Of a stretch of 64,000 nucleotides of DNA, positions 19,651-50,635 are shown piece after piece (within the stretch, counting starts at the first letter, position 1; each line of letters starts with the position of its first letter). The stretch is taken from assembly GCF_000027125.1 (NCBI RefSeq), contig NC_017626.1, one strand, 5' to 3'. The notes below the pieces were generated by a model, which did not search any database, was not told the origin of the DNA, and saw only the letters and a list, made by a program, of their open reading frames with translations. Made by a program: the position numbers and the translations under genes. The DNA is from Escherichia coli 042 (lineage in GTDB: Bacteria > Pseudomonadota > Gammaproteobacteria > Enterobacterales > Enterobacteriaceae).

Positions 19651-20703
19651 TCACCCCCATTCCCGCATCCGCTGATGCAGCGTCAACGACGGCTTCTCGG
19701 CAAACAGCTGCTGGTAATCCGTGGCAAATTGCCCCAGATGCCAGAATCCCCACTGCATGGCGGCGTCTTTTACCGTTGTGCTTTGCGACCAAGGGCTTAT
19801 CAGTTCGCGGCGTACGGCGTTCAGGCGAATGCGTTTCAGCCACGCATTTGGGCCAATGCCTAAAATAGCGTGAAACGCGTTTTGTAGCGTGCGGCGGCTG
19901 ACATGCAGTTGATTACACAAGTCCAGCACCGTCACCGGTTCGGACATGTTTTCCAGCACATATTCACGGGCGCGGGAAAGCAACCGACGGTAACTCTGAT
20001 GACTGATGCTTTCCGCCGTCACCATTGGCTGCGCTTCTTCCAGCATCGCCCCCATCGCCATGAGCAAATTATCCCCCAGCACTTTACGCACAGCAGGCTG
20101 ATGAAGATTTTCCGGGTTCTCGCAAAATGTCGCCAGCGCCTGTTGGACAAAGCCCCACAGCGCGGCTTTATGCTGTTCTTTCACTTCCAGCGCCGACTGG
20201 CTACGCAGCATATGTAATACCCGATCCGGATTATGCAAAAAGTTAGCCTGACGGGTGATGACATCTTCAGAAAGCACTACGCCCAGGATCGTGTAATCGT
20301 CCGGCGTACTTAATTCAAACTCGGTTCCACCGGGGCGCGTCGCTATTTCTGCGCTTCCCAGACATTGCGAACCGATAAATCCCTGCTCACCGCGCGTCGC
20401 CGGAATGCCAAACCAGAACGAGTTCGGCCAGACCAGGCACGACTGACGCAGCGCCAGACCGGTGTATTCACGAAAAACCTGAATATCATCGAGTAGAATT
20501 TCCGTAAATTCACCATGAAACTTGCCCGGATGCAGCTGATCGTAAATCTGCTGCCAGGCGGTAATCGTTAAAGCATGTTCATAGACATCCGTTGTCTGTC
20601 GTTGATGAACATTATCCACTTCGACCTTCGGCGTGAGCTTCAGGTTTTCGGGTAAGGGTTCATGATAAAGATGGTGCAAATTGGCTGTACGGGTCTTTTT
20701 CAT
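19651..20703 (-). CDS. eutR: AraC-family transcriptional activator of the eut operon
   Basis: 350-aa ORF with a C-terminal AraC-type HTH; sits at the distal end of the eut cluster. Confidence 0.93.
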
Positions 20704-22838: not shown

Positions 22839-24200
22839 TCAGAAGAACAGTGACGGATCGCCCGCCCGTTTGGTCAGGCGACCGTTTGCCATAATGCCCA
22901 TGCTTTCCAGCCAGCGTTCAAACTCCGGTGACGGGCGCAGGTTGAGTAACTGACGCACAGTGGCGGTATCGTGGAAGGCGGTGGTCTGGTAGTTGAGCAT
23001 GATGTCATCACCCAGCGGCATCCCCATGATGTAGTTACAGCCTGCGGTGGCGAGCAGGATCATCAGGTTTTCGTTGAGGTTCTGGTCAGCGTCAGCGTGG
23101 TTGGTGTAGCAGCAGTCACAGCCCATAGAGATGCCGCTCAGCTTACCCATAAAGTGATCTTCTAAGCCCGCACGGATAATCTGGCGGTCGTTGTAGAGAT
23201 ACTCCGGCCCAATAAAGCCGACCACGGTGTTGACGATAAACGGATCGTAATGACGCGCCAGCCCATAGTTACGCGCTTCCATCGTCACCTGGTCAGCGCC
23301 GAAGTTCGCGCCAGCGGACAGCGCAGAACCCTGCCCGGTTTCGAAGTAGAGGCAGTTTTCCCCGGCGATACGGTTGAACTCCGCGCCCACTGCGCGTGCT
23401 TCATCGAGCATCGCCAGCTCCACGCCAAATTCTTTCAGCCCTTTTTCGCTGCCGCAGATACTCTGGAAAATCAGCCCGCCTGGTGCGCCACGACGGATCG
23501 CTTCAATCTGGGTGGTGACGTGCGCCAGCACGCAGCCCTGGGTCGGAATGTTGAATTTGTCGATCACGCCGCAAATGGTGTCCAACACGCGGCTTAAGTT
23601 TTCCACGTCGTCAGTCACCGGGTTAACGCCGATCACCGCATCGCCCACCCCGAAGGAAAGCCCTTCGTAGATTTGCGCGGCGATACTTTGCACGTCGTCA
23701 CGGGTGTCGTTTGGCTGCAAGCGGGCGCTGAAGGTGCCCGGAATACCGATGGTGGTATTGGCCTTTTTGATCACCGGCATTTTCTTCGCGCCGTAGATCA
23801 GGTCCGCGTTGGAGCAAATCTTCGCTACCGCCGCGACCACTTCCGAGGTCAGCCCTTTGCGGGTAAAGGCAATGTCGTCCACGCTGGTTTCATCGCTCAG
23901 CACATACTCACGCAGTTCGCTGATGCTCCAGTTTTTAATCTGGTTGTAGGCCGTTTCGTTAACGTCGTCCTGAATCAGCCGCGTCACGCAGTCATCTTCA
24001 TAGGCAATCACCGGATTATTGCGGATGTCCGCTACGGTCATTTCCGACAACACCTGCTTTGCCGCCACGCGCTCTTGTGAGCTTGCCGCTGCAACGCCCG
24101 CCAGCACATCCCCCGAACGCAGTTCGTTGGCTTTAGCCAGCACCTCTTTTACATCCTTAAACTGATATACATTGCCGAACAATGTGGTCTTTAGTTTCAT
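22839..24200 (-). CDS. eutB: Ethanolamine ammonia-lyase large (heavy) subunit
   Basis: 453-aa ORF MKLKTTLFGNVYQFKDVKEVLAKANELRSGD...; only 11 bp from the eutA stop. Confidence 0.96.
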   Translation of the reverse strand: MKLKTTLFGNVYQFKDVKEVLAKANELRSGDVLAGVAAASSQERVAAKQVLSEMTVADIRNNPVIAYEDDCVTRLIQDDVNETAYNQIKNWSISELREYVLSDETSVDDIAFTRKGLTSEVVAAVAKICSNADLIYGAKKMPVIKKANTTIGIPGTFSARLQPNDTRDDVQSIAAQIYEGLSFGVGDAVIGVNPVTDDVENLSRVLDTICGVIDKFNIPTQGCVLAHVTTQIEAIRRGAPGGLIFQSICGSEKGLKEFGVELAMLDEARAVGAEFNRIAGENCLYFETGQGSALSAGANFGADQVTMEARNYGLARHYDPFIVNTVVGFIGPEYLYNDRQIIRAGLEDHFMGKLSGISMGCDCCYTNHADADQNLNENLMILLATAGCNYIMGMPLGDDIMLNYQTTAFHDTATVRQLLNLRPSPEFERWLESMGIMANGRLTKRAGDPSLFF

Positions 24201-24211
24201 AAGTCGTTCCC

Positions 24212-25615
24212 TCAGGAAGGAAATGCGAGTGATTTCACCGTCACCGGCACAACCGATCCGCCAAAAAGAGGCGTACCAATGTCGATATAGTCCCCCGCGC
24301 GGACAATCACTTCGTCAATGACTGCCAACGGGAGTTGCTGTAGCTGTGGGCGCAACAACATGCCCAGAGCTTTACCAAAGTCCTGCCCGGCCACCACCAG
24401 CAGGGGATGCGGATTCGGAAAACGCGCGACGAAATCGACCAGCGCGTTGATGACCGTCAGTACCGCGGCGTAACGCACAGGCAGCGAGGCGGGAAGCGCC
24501 AGCACGTACGCGTCAGTTTTGGGGCAAAGATCCAGCTGAATCAGCGCCTGTTGCCAGGCACTCACCAGATCCGTTTCATCAATTGGGATCGCCACCGGCA
24601 AATTGCGCAGCGGCAGTTGTACGCCCTCCAGCCAGATTGTGCTGCCAGAGAGCGAAAGGGTATGTGCACCCGCGCCAATCACCGTGGCACGTACGGTTTG
24701 CGCTGGAAACTGCACGTTCATCTCACGCAGGCGCGGATGGTCATGCAGCGCCGTTGCCAGAAGCGGGCCGATATCGGCAAAACAGAACGGATCGGCGGGC
24801 TGGTGGCGATAACATTCGCCCACGCCGCCAGAAAGCGTAATGATTTCGGGCGTAACACCTGCGGGCAGCAAACCGGTTTGCATCAATGCCTGCGCGAGCG
24901 GCGAGAGCGTTCCGTCGATCACTTCGACAATCAGCTCTGCCATCCGGCGGGTAACCTGCACCAGCTGCGCGCCGGTCAGCGAACGGGCGTCAGTGCCAGC
25001 ACCGAAGCACTCATCCACAATCATCTGCCCCGGTTTATGAGCGTAAACCACGCGCCCCTGGCTGTCGGTTTCCAGCAGGCGACCGCCGACGTTGAGGCAG
25101 GCGGTGCCGCTGATTTTTCCGGCATCGAACAGGGCGTAGTTCGCGGTGCCACCGCCGATATCGATATTCAGTACCCGACACAACCGTTGTTCAGAAAGGG
25201 TTTGCGCCCCGGCACCGTGACCGGCGATCACGGATTCGAGATGCGGCCCGGCGCTGGCGACGACAAAATCGCCCAGCGATTGGGAGAGCGTCATCACCGC
25301 CGGGCGAGCATTGCGGGTTTTCGCGCTTTCACCGGTGATGATGATGGCACCAGAATCAACGCTTTCCGGCGCAATGCCCGCAGCCTGGTATTGCTCGAGG
25401 ATTAAGGTTTTCAGTTCCGCTTCTTTTAAACCACCCTGTTTATCGACAGGGGTAAAGAACACCGGGCTTTGCCAGCTAATTTCGCGTTTGATGAATTCGT
25501 AGCGCGGCACCTGCGACACCGCCGCACGGTTAACCAGCTCCAGGTGGGAGAAGATCACCTGGGTGGTGGTGGTGCCGATATCGATACCGACGCTCAGTAG
25601 CTGGCGAGTGTTCAC
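24212..25615 (-). CDS. eutA: Ethanolamine ammonia-lyase reactivating factor
   Basis: 467-aa ORF with ASKHA/actin-like ATPase features; directly upstream of eutB. Confidence 0.95.
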   Translation of the reverse strand: MNTRQLLSVGIDIGTTTTQVIFSHLELVNRAAVSQVPRYEFIKREISWQSPVFFTPVDKQGGLKEAELKTLILEQYQAAGIAPESVDSGAIIITGESAKTRNARPAVMTLSQSLGDFVVASAGPHLESVIAGHGAGAQTLSEQRLCRVLNIDIGGGTANYALFDAGKISGTACLNVGGRLLETDSQGRVVYAHKPGQMIVDECFGAGTDARSLTGAQLVQVTRRMAELIVEVIDGTLSPLAQALMQTGLLPAGVTPEIITLSGGVGECYRHQPADPFCFADIGPLLATALHDHPRLREMNVQFPAQTVRATVIGAGAHTLSLSGSTIWLEGVQLPLRNLPVAIPIDETDLVSAWQQALIQLDLCPKTDAYVLALPASLPVRYAAVLTVINALVDFVARFPNPHPLLVVAGQDFGKALGMLLRPQLQQLPLAVIDEVIVRAGDYIDIGTPLFGGSVVPVTVKSLAFPS

Positions 25616-26838: not shown

Positions 26839-26868
26839 CGCCTTTACTCCCTGTTAGTTGTTATTTAT

Positions 26869-27352
<484 letters not shown>

Positions 27353-27353
27353 T

Positions 27354-34027: not shown

Positions 34028-34481
34028 CTGCTTCCTCCTGTTTGGTGAGAGATGCCAGATAATCCACCAGTTGCTGCACGCTTTGCGGGTCGTGGCTGTT
34101 TAGCTCGAAAATCGGCTCTTCGAAGCCCGTCTCAAGCAATAACTTTCGCGTTGCGGCGACGTCAGCATCTGGCATGTCCGTTTTACTGATGACGGCGATT
34201 TGCCGTTTGCTGACGCCAATATCCAGCAACCCGGCAGGCAATCGGCTTTCCGGGTCATTCGCGCCGTGGACATAGATCAGCATGTCCACATCCTGTAGCG
34301 TGGTAATTAAGGCGTGATACCAGCGGGGGTGGCTAAAATATTCACCCGGCGTATCAATATCACCCTTATCATTAAATTCTACGGCCTGCGTTTTTCTGGC
34401 GAGGGTATAATCTCCCTGCAACGCATTAAATAACGTTGTTTTTCCTGCCCCGACGGTACCCACAAACGCAATTCGTTTCAT
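34002..34481 (-). CDS. eutP: P-loop NTPase-like protein EutP
   Basis: 159-aa ORF with Walker A GTVGAGKTT; overlaps the eutQ start by 26 bp. Confidence 0.92.
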   Translation of the reverse strand: MKRIAFVGTVGAGKTTLFNALQGDYTLARKTQAVEFNDKGDIDTPGEYFSHPRWYHALITTLQDVDMLIYVHGANDPESRLPAGLLDIGVSKRQIAVISKTDMPDADVAATRKLLLETGFEEPIFELNSHDPQSVQQLVDYLASLTKQEEAGEKTHHSE

Positions 34482-34493
34482 GAATGCCTCGTA

Positions 34494-34829
34494 TTAACTT
34501 TTGGTCATTTCACAAAGCGTATAATTTAATAAACGCCCTAAACCGCTGACGGTTTGTGATAACGCTTCTTCTACTGCGCCCACCGAGCCATAAATCACCA
34601 GCGCGCCGCTAAAACGGTCGAGAAAACCGATATGCACATCGGCGGCTTTTAGTGCTAAATCACCGGCGATCATCGCCGTTTCGCCGGGAGTTAGCGTCAT
34701 AATGCCGATTGCGCCCGCATCAGGAACGCCGATTTTCTTCGCCAGTTCCTCGCCGGGATGCGCGATGAGATGCGCCAGTGTGACCTGTTTACCGGGCACA
34801 AATTCCTGAATGATGCGTTCTTTATCCAT
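34494..34829 (-). CDS. eutS: Microcompartment shell protein EutS (permuted BMC domain)
   Basis: Track ORF is extended; product from [25 protein letters not shown] is 111 aa; first gene of the operon. Confidence 0.9.
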
Positions 34830-35060
34830 GAGTCGCCGCCTGTGAAAAACTTTCGTGTATCGTGACAATTTTTCGTCAGAGTAAATAACAAAATTCGGCA
34901 AGCGCGTTTAAAAGGTGAGGTAGATCACTAAGAATGGAGAGATATTTACTGTTATGAATAAACTTTCATATGCGAGGCATGAATATAAATAAAATAATAT
35001 CGAGATATTTTATATACTGCTTTTTTTATTATTCGCAAACTCAGTAATAAGCTTTGCTAA
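34830..35060 (-). promoter_or_regulatory. AT-rich eut operon promoter/operator region upstream of eutS
   Basis: About 230 bp of strongly AT-rich sequence directly upstream of the first eut gene; the main eut promoter is expected here. No individual site assigned. Confidence 0.4.
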
Positions 35061-35076
35061 TATATTTCAGGAAAAC

Positions 35077-35104
35077 CGCTTACCCTGAATATTCAGGGTA
35101 AGCG
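35077..35104 (-). terminator. Rho-independent terminator downstream of maeB
   Basis: Palindrome cgcttaccctgaatattcagggtaagcg followed on the minus strand by a T-rich run, about 20 bp after the maeB stop. Confidence 0.55.
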
Positions 35105-35121
35105 TGAGAGTTAAGAATGAA

Positions 35122-37401
35122 TTACAGCGGTTGGGTTTGTGCTTCAACCACAGCCAGCGCCACCATGTTGACGATACGACGTACCGATGCGATCGGCGTT
35201 AACACGTGAACCGGTTTCGCCACGCCCATCAGCACCGGACCGACAGTCACACCTTCCGAGCTGGAAACGCGCAGTAAGTTGTAACTAATGCGGGCAGCTT
35301 CCATGTTCGGCATCACCAGAATATTAGCGGAACCTTTCAAAGGGCTGTCCGGCATACGGTCGCTGCGAATCGCTTCCACCAGCGCTGCATCGCCGTGCAT
35401 TTCACCATCAATCATCAGTTCTGGTGCACGTTCCCTGACCAGTTCCAGCGCCTGACGCATTTTGCTCGACGACGGGCAGTCAGAAGAACCAAAGTTGGAG
35501 TGCGACAACAGAGCCACGCGCGGTTCAATACCGAAACGACGAACAGTTTCTGCCGCCATCAAGGTGATCTCCGCCAGCTCTTCTGCGTCTGGTTCGTCAT
35601 TGACGTAGGTATCGGCAATAAAGGTGTTACCACTCGGCAGCAGCAGCGCGTTCATGGCACCTGCGGTGTGAACGCCATCGCGATAACCAAAGACATTTTT
35701 CACCACGCTAAAATGTTCATGATAATCGCCCACCGTACCGCAGATCATTGCATCGGCTTCGCCACGCTGAACCATGATCGCGCCAATCACTGTCGGGTTA
35801 CTGATCAATGCACGCTGCGCCTGTTCCTGAGTGACACCACGACGCTTCATGATCTGGAAGTATTCGGTCCAGTACTCTTTAAAGCGCGGATCGGATTCGT
35901 TATTGACGATCTCAAAATCAACACCCGCTTTGATCTGCAAGCCCAGTTTCTGAATGCGCATTTCGATCACATTCGGACGACCGATAAGGATCGGTTTCGC
36001 CAGCCCCAGTGTTACCAGTTCCTGAGTGGCATGCAGAACGCGCGCCTCTTCCCCTTCCGGCAGAACGACGCGCTTCGGCGCTTTGCGAGCCTGGGAGAAA
36101 ATCGGCTTCATAAACAGGTTGGTTTTGTAAACGAACTCCGTCAGCTTGTCGATGTAGACGTCGAAATCAGCAATCGGACGCGTCGCCACGCCCGACTCCA
36201 TCGCGGCTTTAGCGACCGCAGGAGCGATCTTAACGATCAAGCGCGGATCAAACGGTTTTGGAATGATGTATTCCGGACCAAAGCTCAGATCCTGATCGCC
36301 ATAAGCTGAAGCCACCACTTCACTCTGTTCCGCATGGGCCAATTCTGCAATCGCGCGTACCGCCGCCAGTTTCATCTCTTCGTTGATGGCGGTTGCGCCA
36401 ACGTCCAGCGCGCCACGGAAGATGAACGGGAAGCAAAGGACGTTGTTCACCTGGTTCGGGTAGTCGGAACGGCCGGTACAGATGATGGCATCCGGACGCA
36501 CTTCTTTCGCCAGCGGCGGCAGAATTTCCGGTTCCGGGTTCGCCAGCGCCAGGATCATTGGCGCTCGAGCCATTTTCTTCACCATTTCCTGGGTCAGCAC
36601 TTTCGGGCCGGAACATCCCAGGAAAATATCCGCGCCTTCAATCACATCATCGAGGGTACGTTTGCCGTCATCCACCACCGCATATGCGGCTTTGGTTTCC
36701 GCCATGTTTGGTTCACGGCCCTGATAGATAACGCCTTTTGAATCGCAAACCACGATGTTATGTTTTTGCAGACCCAGCGCTACCAGCAGGTTCATACAGG
36801 CGATTGCTGCGGCACCCGCGCCGGAAACCACCATCCGCACGTCAGAGATGTTTTTCTCCACCACGCGCAAACCGTTGAGGATGGCGGCAGTGCTGATGAT
36901 TGCCGTGCCGTGCTGATCGTCGTGGAATACCGGAATATTCATCCGCTCGCGCAGTTTCTGTTCAATATAGAAACATTCTGGCGCTTTAATGTCTTCGAGG
37001 TTGATGCCGCCGAAGGTCGGTTCAAGCGCAGCGACGACTTCAATAAATTTGTCCGGGTCGAGTTCATCAACTTCAATGTCAAATACATCAATCCCGGCGA
37101 ATTTCTTAAACAGAACGCCCTTGCCTTCCATCACCGGTTTGCCCGCCAGCGCGCCAATGTTGCCTAACCCCAGCACCGCCGTACCGTTAGAGATCACCGC
37201 CACCAGGTTACCGCGCGCGGTATATTTGTAGGCTTTTAACGGGTCTTTTTCGATTTCAAGACAAGGTGCGGCAACGCCTGGTGAGTAGGCCAGCGCCAGA
37301 TCGCGCTGCGTTGCCAGAGGCTTGGTTGGAGAAACCTGGATTTTCCCTGGAACTGGAAATTCATGGAAATCAAGTGCACTTTGTTTTAACTGGTCATCCA
37401 T
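35122..37401 (-). CDS. maeB: NADP-dependent malic enzyme (malic enzyme domain fused to a PTA-like domain)
   Basis: 759-aa [32 protein letters not shown].... Confidence 0.96.
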
Positions 37402-49898: not shown

Positions 49899-50260
49899 AA
49901 CAACCTCTCTTATAATTATGGGTATTCTACGGAAACAATATACCGTGGTGAAGCTAATTTACTCGATTGCTGCGATGACTACCTCCGGGGGACAAACCTT
50001 ATGTAAATACTATGGTCCTGCGGTGATGATTTGTATGTGATACACAGCAACATTTCGAGATATTCATACGGCATCTAATACTGATTTAATTCTGGTTAAA
50101 ATACAGACAGATAACAAGATGAATATTCTTAATGTTTACGTTAAAAATGTTTAATATTATTTAATAGTTGTTAATTTGAATACTTCGATAATGTTATATT
50201 TCCTGATAATCATTTGCAGGCAAAATGTTTTCACCCTTAAATGAGTATTTATTCTCATAA

Positions 50261-50635
<375 letters not shown>

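Follow-up and report, generated by a model that had tools for sequence, protein, structure and literature searches.

The 292 bp upstream of the eut operon in Escherichia coli 042 form a composite region, in which a conserved core lies next to eutS and a distal AT-rich spacer separates this core from the 3′-end of maeB. The AT-richness of the region is accordingly uneven, and the spacer that carries most of it is specific to Escherichia among the loci retrieved and evolves fast. On balance we lean towards a reading in which a hairpin behind maeB is followed by a spacer that would load H-NS and insulate the promoter, and then by a core that would hold the control by CRP and EutR.

RESULTS

The maeB-eutS interval and EutR control of the eut promoter

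Coordinates refer to the window, i.e. the whole stretch of 64,000 nt that was analysed. Strain Ecol_316 matches positions 34400-35400 with 100% identity, and eutP, eutS and maeB are annotated beneath the match. The interval 34830-35121 is the exact 292-bp gap from the eutS start codon to the maeB stop codon, and as both genes lie on the minus strand, maeB is upstream of eutS. The eut genes follow each other from eutS to eutR on the minus strand (34829 to 19651), which places the interval directly upstream of eutS, at the location of the main eut promoter P1. It is thus a control region already known from E. coli, located between maeB and eut. The genes concerned are as follows:

35122..37401, minus strand: maeB, NADP-dependent malic enzyme (open reading frame list, RefSeq annotation of the identical stretch and mapping); stop codon TAA at 35124-35122
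34494..34829, minus strand: eutS, the eut operon's first gene (open reading frame list, RefSeq annotation and mapping); start codon at 34829-34827
19651..20703, minus strand: eutR, AraC-family activator, last gene of the operon (mapping; Pfam HTH_18 2e-19, HTH_AraC 9.6e-17)

For orthologues, it is established that EutR controls this promoter. In EHEC and Salmonella the eutS promoter counts as an established target of EutR (PMC4643982; PMC5821096); its binding by EutR is reported for EHEC, and Salmonella ChIP used it as a positive control (PMC4643982). Without EutR, a Salmonella eutS'-'lacZ fusion can hardly be detected (PMC10433801), and the expression of a promoter-gfp fusion of the long locus of Klebsiella pneumoniae is lost in an eutR mutant; the same paper names a putative EutR site (PMC11101070). 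Two papers that refer to Roof and Roth (1992) and Luzader et al. (2013) describe the main promoter P1 of the Salmonella and E. coli eut operons as activated by EutR with ethanolamine plus adenosylcobalamin (PMC5821096; PMC4643982). A preliminary description of the interval had already taken it for the upstream control region of eut with EutR as its dedicated regulator, and this agrees with the presence of eutR in the operon, with its AraC-type helix-turn-helix domains, as well as with the published EutR dependence of the orthologues.

Within the operon, the eutB and eutA genes are adjacent at their junction (24200-24212), so the operon is uninterrupted at the position where K-12 carries the CPZ-55 prophage (a K-12 data table carries the label 'eutB/intZ'). 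The eutH-eutG spacer, also inside the operon (26839-27353, 515 bp, GC 0.60), contains five tandem units of ~100 bp starting at 26870, 26970, 27069, 27169 and 27269, each with REP-like sequences (GGCGGATGCGGCGT, GGCGGATAAGGCGT and GCYGGATGCRACGC). Strain Ecol_316 is near-identical otherwise but has only 315 bp at this place, so close strains differ in the copy number of this BIME-like array.

Uneven base composition of the interval

The GC content of 34830-35121 is 0.336; the window as a whole has 0.534 and its coding sequence 0.542, and a value as low as that of the interval occurs in only 0.5% of all 292-bp windows. Among the 32 intergenic regions that are 40 bp or longer (mean 0.453, sd 0.076) the interval has the second lowest GC, which bears out the earlier statement that it is strongly AT-rich. 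The long A/T run quoted in the preliminary description, tatatactgctttttttattattcg, was likewise found, at 35011-35036, and 34982-35067 contains unbroken A/T runs of 19, 12, 13 and 10 nt. The lowest GC of all intergenic regions in the window belongs to the ypfM-yffB spacer (49899-50278, 380 bp, GC 0.313), which reaches a minimum of 0.267 in the 292-bp window at 50029.

Division of the interval gave two parts of different composition. The 105 bp next to eutS (34830-34934) have a GC of 0.41, which is ordinary for intergenic DNA in the window, and the remainder up to the maeB hairpin is the following feature:

34935..35076, no strand assigned: distal AT-rich spacer of 142 bp, GC 0.254, TpA 0.148 per bp (composition, divergence and absence elsewhere)

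The two parts also differ in their divergence from K-12, in which the interval corresponds to NC_000913.3:2575806-2576097 and the spacer to 2575911-2576052. In the core, 0 of the 105 positions differ, in the spacer 9.8% of the aligned positions do, and the corresponding values are 4.2% for the eutS coding sequence and 3.3% for the 3′-end of maeB. The A/T runs, which the preliminary description regarded as a property of the promoter, all lie inside the 142-bp segment found only in Escherichia, and this part of its claim was not supported in that form. Because the AT-rich segment is absent from related genera and shows 9.8% divergence against 0% for the core, it is not the conserved EutR/CRP promoter. 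An AT content well above average over at least 100 bp, as seen at H-NS-silenced promoters, is present both for the whole interval and for the spacer taken separately.

A CRP site and a candidate EutR operator in the core

The ~105 bp upstream of the eutS ATG form a nearly invariant core across Enterobacteriaceae, in which we distinguished the following elements:

34914..34929, minus strand: CRP site AGTGATCTACCTCACC (in vitro Footprint-seq from the literature, and conservation), within the 21-mer ttAGTGAtctaccTCACCttt at 34931-34911
34885..34901, minus strand: box TTGCCGAATTTTGTTAT, candidate EutR operator overlapping the -35 position (conservation)
34882..34890, minus strand: TGtTATTTA, alternative extended -10-like element, for a 5′-end at 34876; its hexamer lacks the T at position 6 and is not kept in distant genera
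34859..34867, minus strand: TGtCACGAT, extended -10-like element of a putative promoter dependent on EutR (fixed spacing to the box), with the hexamer at 34864-34859 and a predicted start near 34852
34830..34876, minus strand: eutS leader, with a Shine-Dalgarno-like AGGCGG at 34841-34836; identical to K-12

The CRP site had been missed in the preliminary description. The sequence AGTGAtctaccTCACC has two mismatches to the CRP consensus TGTGA-N6-TCACA. A motif scan returned 18 matches where 24.9 were expected, i.e. a sequence match alone is not above chance, and we discarded the motif as uninformative when it is taken without conservation and the literature. The evidence comes from these two sources. 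The same 21-mer appears in Table 1 of a genome-wide in vitro footprinting study (PMC12871828) as a newly described CRP site located upstream of eutS, for which a Kd of ~9 nM was derived, and the site is conserved as far as Buttiauxella and Morganella, always at an offset of 28 bp from the downstream box. A consensus-like sequence, a published in vitro affinity for CRP and conservation across genera coincide here. Its centre, 34921.5, corresponds to -69.5 if transcription starts at the predicted position 34852 and to -45.5 if it starts at 34876. Productive CRP sites are centred at -41.5, -61.5, -71.5 and so on. Catabolite control has been reported for eut, and the conserved CRP site fits with it.

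The box consists of the halves TTGCCG and TTTGTTAT, has its start 28 bp downstream of that of the CRP site and does not vary within Enterobacteriaceae. When up to five substitutions were allowed, it was found upstream of eutS in 50 loci, those of Morganella, Iodobacter, a Telmatospirillum MAG and Pseudomonas nicosulfuronedens among them. Of the 14 distinct versions, 12 are followed after 20-21 nt by a hexamer nAnnAT, which has A in its second and T in its sixth position (for example CACGAT, CAGCAT, TAGCAT, TAGGAT or TAGTAT). Relative to the predicted start near 34852 the box extends from about -49 to -33, and AraC-family activators sit at such positions. From the fixed spacing of the -10-like hexamer in distant genera, and from a geometry that suits AraC-family activators, of which EutR is one, we infer that TTGCCGAATTTTGTTAT is the EutR operator over the -35 position, with CRP just upstream of it at about -69.5.

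A second possible start is suggested by Salmonella, in which the eutS RNA used for CsrA binding starts at -47 (PMC10433801). This position corresponds to 34876 of the window and fits the alternative -10 element TGtTATTTA, and it would place the box at -25 to -9, which is odd for an activator. Both starts, 34852 and 34876, may be in use, one basal and one induced. The orthologous Salmonella leader binds CsrA (PMC10433801). On the minus strand, the leader and promoter also contain a direct repeat, ACGAAAAATTGTCAC (34876-34862) and ACGAAAGTTTTTCAC (34856-34842), whose copies are 20 bp apart and 80% alike; it is probably due to chance, because the second copy is poorly conserved in Salmonella.

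No promoter was found in the region by a simple scan with the sigma-70 consensus, which is consistent with activator dependence, and the absence of a peak for the maeB-eutS spacer in the RpoD-holoenzyme SELEX catalogue is likewise as expected of an activator-dependent promoter. For the RpoS holoenzyme, a SELEX peak is recorded in the eutS-maeB spacer (PMC5493296).

The hairpin at the maeB 3′-end

That the interval abuts a terminator hairpin of maeB had been stated before, and the hairpin proved to be real:

35077..35104, minus strand: maeB 3′ hairpin CGCTTACCCTGAATATTCAGGGTAAGCG (terminator scan, inverted repeat and RNA fold); terminator-like, with a weak U tract
35070..35076, minus strand: tail after the hairpin, GTTTTCC in the window

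The hairpin begins 17 nt past the maeB stop codon and has 14-nt arms that are 100% complementary, which gives a stem of 12-14 bp. Its predicted RNA fold has a free energy of -22.1 kcal/mol (z = -6.5 against shuffled sequences), and the stem-loop is of the kind found in intrinsic terminators. After the stem, the window has GUUUUCC, and K-12, O145 and UPEC 26-1 have UUU only; the tails elsewhere in E. coli read AGTTTAG, GGTTTGG or GGTTTAG, so that the run comprises 3-4 U in E. coli. The terminator scan was passed only marginally by this hairpin, and shuffled sequences give as many sites. In Escherichia the hairpin is retained with G-U changes, and in other genera maeB is followed by a different, GC-rich hairpin with T5-6.

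Compared with intrinsic terminators in general, the maeB hairpin has in common that it is stable, contains GC pairs, follows soon after the stop codon and is succeeded by U residues. It differs in the short U tract of E. coli, and the orthologous terminator elsewhere is another hairpin with 5-6 T.

The spacer in other genomes

For comparison, we retrieved 63 eutS loci of other species, located the maeB 3′-end in each of them and aligned the sequences. In most loci of Citrobacter, the Klebsiella oxytoca group, Pseudocitrobacter and Yokenella the gap between maeB and eutS is 153-160 bp with a GC of 0.38-0.44; in these genera the GC-rich hairpin and its T tract lie directly beside the core and its CRP site, and the spacer is absent. 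Of the four other Escherichia loci, three (E. whittamii among them) resemble the window in having a gap of about 284-292 bp with a GC of ~0.34, and the fourth, a deletion variant, has 236 bp. Escherichia thus has its own hairpin followed by ~140 bp of AT-rich DNA that is unrelated to other genera. Within the spacer, the sub-block TTATTCATGCGYTGCATATGAAAGTTTAT (about 34985-34955) is common to E. coli, E. whittamii and Escherichia sp. E1V33.

We also searched 5,426 complete E. coli genomes with a 176-bp query containing spacer and hairpin (34935-35110). It was found in 5,402 of them, at a median of one place per genome, and at a coverage of at least 80% in 5294; in 4,315 genomes the sequence is only 90-95% identical to the version in the window. 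The spacer had no phage match, and the plasmid matches were mislabelled chromosomes only. An origin from a mobile or repeated element (REP, MITE or IS remnant) was rejected in view of these results, the sequence being single copy. Short direct and inverted repeats in the region are imperfect and not conserved and were treated as chance.

Several individual loci show rearrangements. E. coli SCPM-O-B-8794 (L008) has a 56-bp deletion in the spacer (window ~34950-35005), which takes out the sole sub-block conserved in Escherichia and leaves the promoter core intact. In E. coli GDSC2239PM (L068, NZ_CP136018.1; 448-1246) an IS1A lies in the spacer right behind the maeB hairpin, and this strain lacks eutS through the 5′ part of eutE. 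Therefore the spacer can act as an IS1 target and as an endpoint of a deletion that inactivates eut. Unrelated insertions between the maeB terminator and the CRP site are present in Citrobacter amalonaticus S646 (L018), Citrobacter sp. MGH106 (L028) and K. pneumoniae (L031), with gaps of 370, 284 and 218 bp, respectively, instead of the usual ~160 bp, and this spot appears to be a recurrent insertion hotspot. In Salmonella enterica subsp. arizonae/diarizonae (L009/L010) no maeB lies within 1.5 kb upstream of eutS; the start of a divergent radical-SAM/SPASM gene (3-1187 of L009) is found there at ~310 bp from eutS on its upstream side, with the core of the eut promoter intact.

The same promoter operates in Citrobacter and Klebsiella without the spacer, which is therefore presumably dispensable for activation by EutR.

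H-NS binding and the silencing idea

The preliminary description had proposed that the promoter is silenced by H-NS and activated by EutR, and published H-NS data lend partial support to the first part as far as occupancy is concerned. In the part of S2 Table of Higashi et al. (2016) that covers this neighbourhood, ypfE (= eutS) and eutP count as bound by H-NS in the ChAP-seq of one or more of the strains K-12, SE11 and SE15. The entries there are coding regions, and the maeB-eutS intergenic region is not one of them. The genes eutQ, eutT, talA, ypfG and narQ are scored as unbound, and yffB is the only other bound gene in the neighbourhood. This gene adjoins the ypfM-yffB spacer, the most AT-rich of the window, which fits the general rule that H-NS follows AT-rich DNA. 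In the papers searched, nothing was reported on a de-repression of eut in hns mutants or on EutR acting by counter-silencing, and the supplements of an FNR paper contained nothing on eutS.

In the spacer itself, TpA is enriched ~4-fold (0.148 against 0.037 per bp), and 15 TAnnnT hexamers were counted on both strands. Neither phased A-tracts nor a 10-11 bp periodicity of AA/TT was found in it (945 of 1000 shuffled sequences do as well). The H-NS 10-mer TCGATAAATT gives matches everywhere, and the two matches with two mismatches in the region are not above background. The spacer is the likely loading region for H-NS.

DISCUSSION

The reading that we find somewhat more convincing than not combines the three parts of the interval in the order in which they follow maeB. 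The hairpin 17 nt past the stop codon would end or stabilize the maeB transcript, with a weak U tract. H-NS would then load on the ~140-bp spacer and spread across the promoter into eutS and eutP, thereby keeping low the basal transcription, the read-through from maeB and spurious starts at the many -10-like hexamers of the spacer. The control logic would reside in the 105-bp core, i.e. the CRP site, the putative EutR box TTGCCGAATTTTGTTAT 28 bp further on, the weak extended -10 element TGtCACGAT and a short leader. When ethanolamine and adenosylcobalamin are present, EutR, aided by cAMP-CRP, would recruit RNA polymerase at the core, and the operon including eutR would be transcribed. In this scheme the contact of EutR with the box, the site at which transcription starts and whatever functional effect H-NS or the spacer may have are inferred.

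A simpler explanation, which we consider a serious but less probable one, is that the spacer has no function: in an ancestral replacement, a different hairpin and extra DNA would have taken the place of the GC-rich maeB terminator, and this neutral filler would have drifted to high AT through mutation bias and weak constraint, with H-NS binding incidental to the AT-richness and all regulation in the 105-bp core. Its divergence from K-12 (9.8%, more than twice that of the eutS and maeB coding sequences, with 0% in the core) is what such filler would show, as is the identity of just 90-95% over 34935-35110 in 4315 E. coli genomes. One lineage tolerates the 56-bp deletion, the operon functions in other genera that lack the spacer, the corresponding place carries other insertions in K. 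pneumoniae, Citrobacter sp. MGH106 and C. amalonaticus S646, and the spacer has neither a curvature signal nor a specific motif. However, the sub-block TTATTCATGCGYTGCATATGAAAGTTTAT is kept across E. coli, E. whittamii and Escherichia sp. E1V33, and the spacer is retained in the great majority of E. coli genomes (5294/5426 at a coverage of at least 80%), which speaks against pure drift. Moreover, H-NS-bound upstream regions are argued to diverge faster because they are silenced (PMC4720273), so the fast divergence of the spacer does not exclude a function. Taken together, the high divergence, the 56-bp deletion and the IS1 event fit weak constraint as well as a silencing platform.

The reading of the preliminary description, in which the whole 292 bp are the EutR promoter and the AT-richness is intrinsic to it (through H-NS silencing relieved by EutR, distal EutR sites, an UP-element or bending), appears unlikely to us. 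Promoters that are AT-rich, H-NS-bound and activator-dependent are a well-known class, eutS and eutP are flagged as H-NS-bound, the RpoS-holoenzyme peak lies in the eutS-maeB spacer, and published EutR-dependent reporters used long upstream fragments. Yet the AT-rich part is not conserved outside Escherichia, where EutR, the box and the CRP site are, and the conserved core is only moderately AT-rich. The distance from the terminator to the CRP site is only ~12-15 bp in Citrobacter and Klebsiella oxytoca; therefore no distal element is required there. The literature search, too, yielded nothing on counter-silencing by EutR. That the spacer instead hides an unannotated gene, an sRNA (e.g. from the maeB 3′-end) or a small protein, is less probable still. 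Open reading frames of 25-28 codons exist on both strands, the hairpin could be the 3′-end of an sRNA, and the sub-block is conserved within Escherichia; but these small frames were rejected as candidates, being unconserved and broken between strains (the 25-codon frame on the plus strand is shifted between the window and K-12 through an A7/A8 run), Rfam gave no match in the region on either strand at E <= 1, the simple scan found no promoter consensus, and the segment is highly variable and partly deletable.

Among known systems, the locus is orthologous to the described eut P1, directly upstream of eutS and with eutR last, and its core is almost identical to that of Salmonella. It differs in the stretch between maeB and the core, which in E. 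coli consists of a hairpin of its own and the 140-bp AT-rich spacer; S. arizonae has the divergent radical-SAM/SPASM gene upstream instead, and Citrobacter and Klebsiella have only a terminator. With the AraC-family promoters of class II type that have CRP upstream (araBAD, rhaBAD and melAB) it shares an AraC-family activator, EutR, with a CRP site just upstream, and a conserved 17-bp box that ends 20 nt before a weak -10 element and so overlaps the -35 position; however, eut has one evident box rather than two direct repeats, and a start at 34876 would not fit this geometry. The resemblance to H-NS-bound AT-rich control regions is looser. With the H-NS-silenced promoters that have a dedicated activator (LEE1/Ler, hilA/HilD, cadBA/CadC, bgl and proU) eut has in common the AT- and TpA-rich upstream tract, the published H-NS occupancy of its first genes and a dedicated activator. 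In contrast to this class, eut is not obviously foreign and its coding GC is normal, and the AT-rich tract lies upstream of the candidate activator site instead of coinciding with it.

A bolder proposal, which we hold only tentatively and which joins two statements, is that Escherichia gained a TpA-rich, H-NS-recruiting module in place of the ancestral maeB terminator, and that the 17-bp box TTGCCGAWWTTTGWTAT with a -10 element at 20-21 nt is the EutR operator from Enterobacterales to Neisseriales and Pseudomonadales. If the module is indeed of this kind, the off-state of eut in E. coli would be tighter or differently tuned than in Citrobacter and Klebsiella, and eut would be shielded from read-through of maeB.

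The AT-richness of the interval is thus a real observation but largely already known. What is added here is the split into the core and the Escherichia-only spacer, a candidate EutR operator and confirmation of the CRP site, and the established picture of eut regulation is unchanged. Ethanolamine use gives a growth advantage to gut E. coli and to enteric pathogens, and EutR also feeds virulence regulation; knowing which 100 bp hold the control logic helps in the design of reporters and in the comparison of strains. For both uses it also helps to know that the tract of conspicuous AT-richness varies, is an addition confined to Escherichia and is probably occupied by H-NS, and the box provides a candidate for the EutR operator that can be tested. 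Finally, results on the silencing of basal eut expression in E. coli may not carry over to Salmonella, Citrobacter and Klebsiella.
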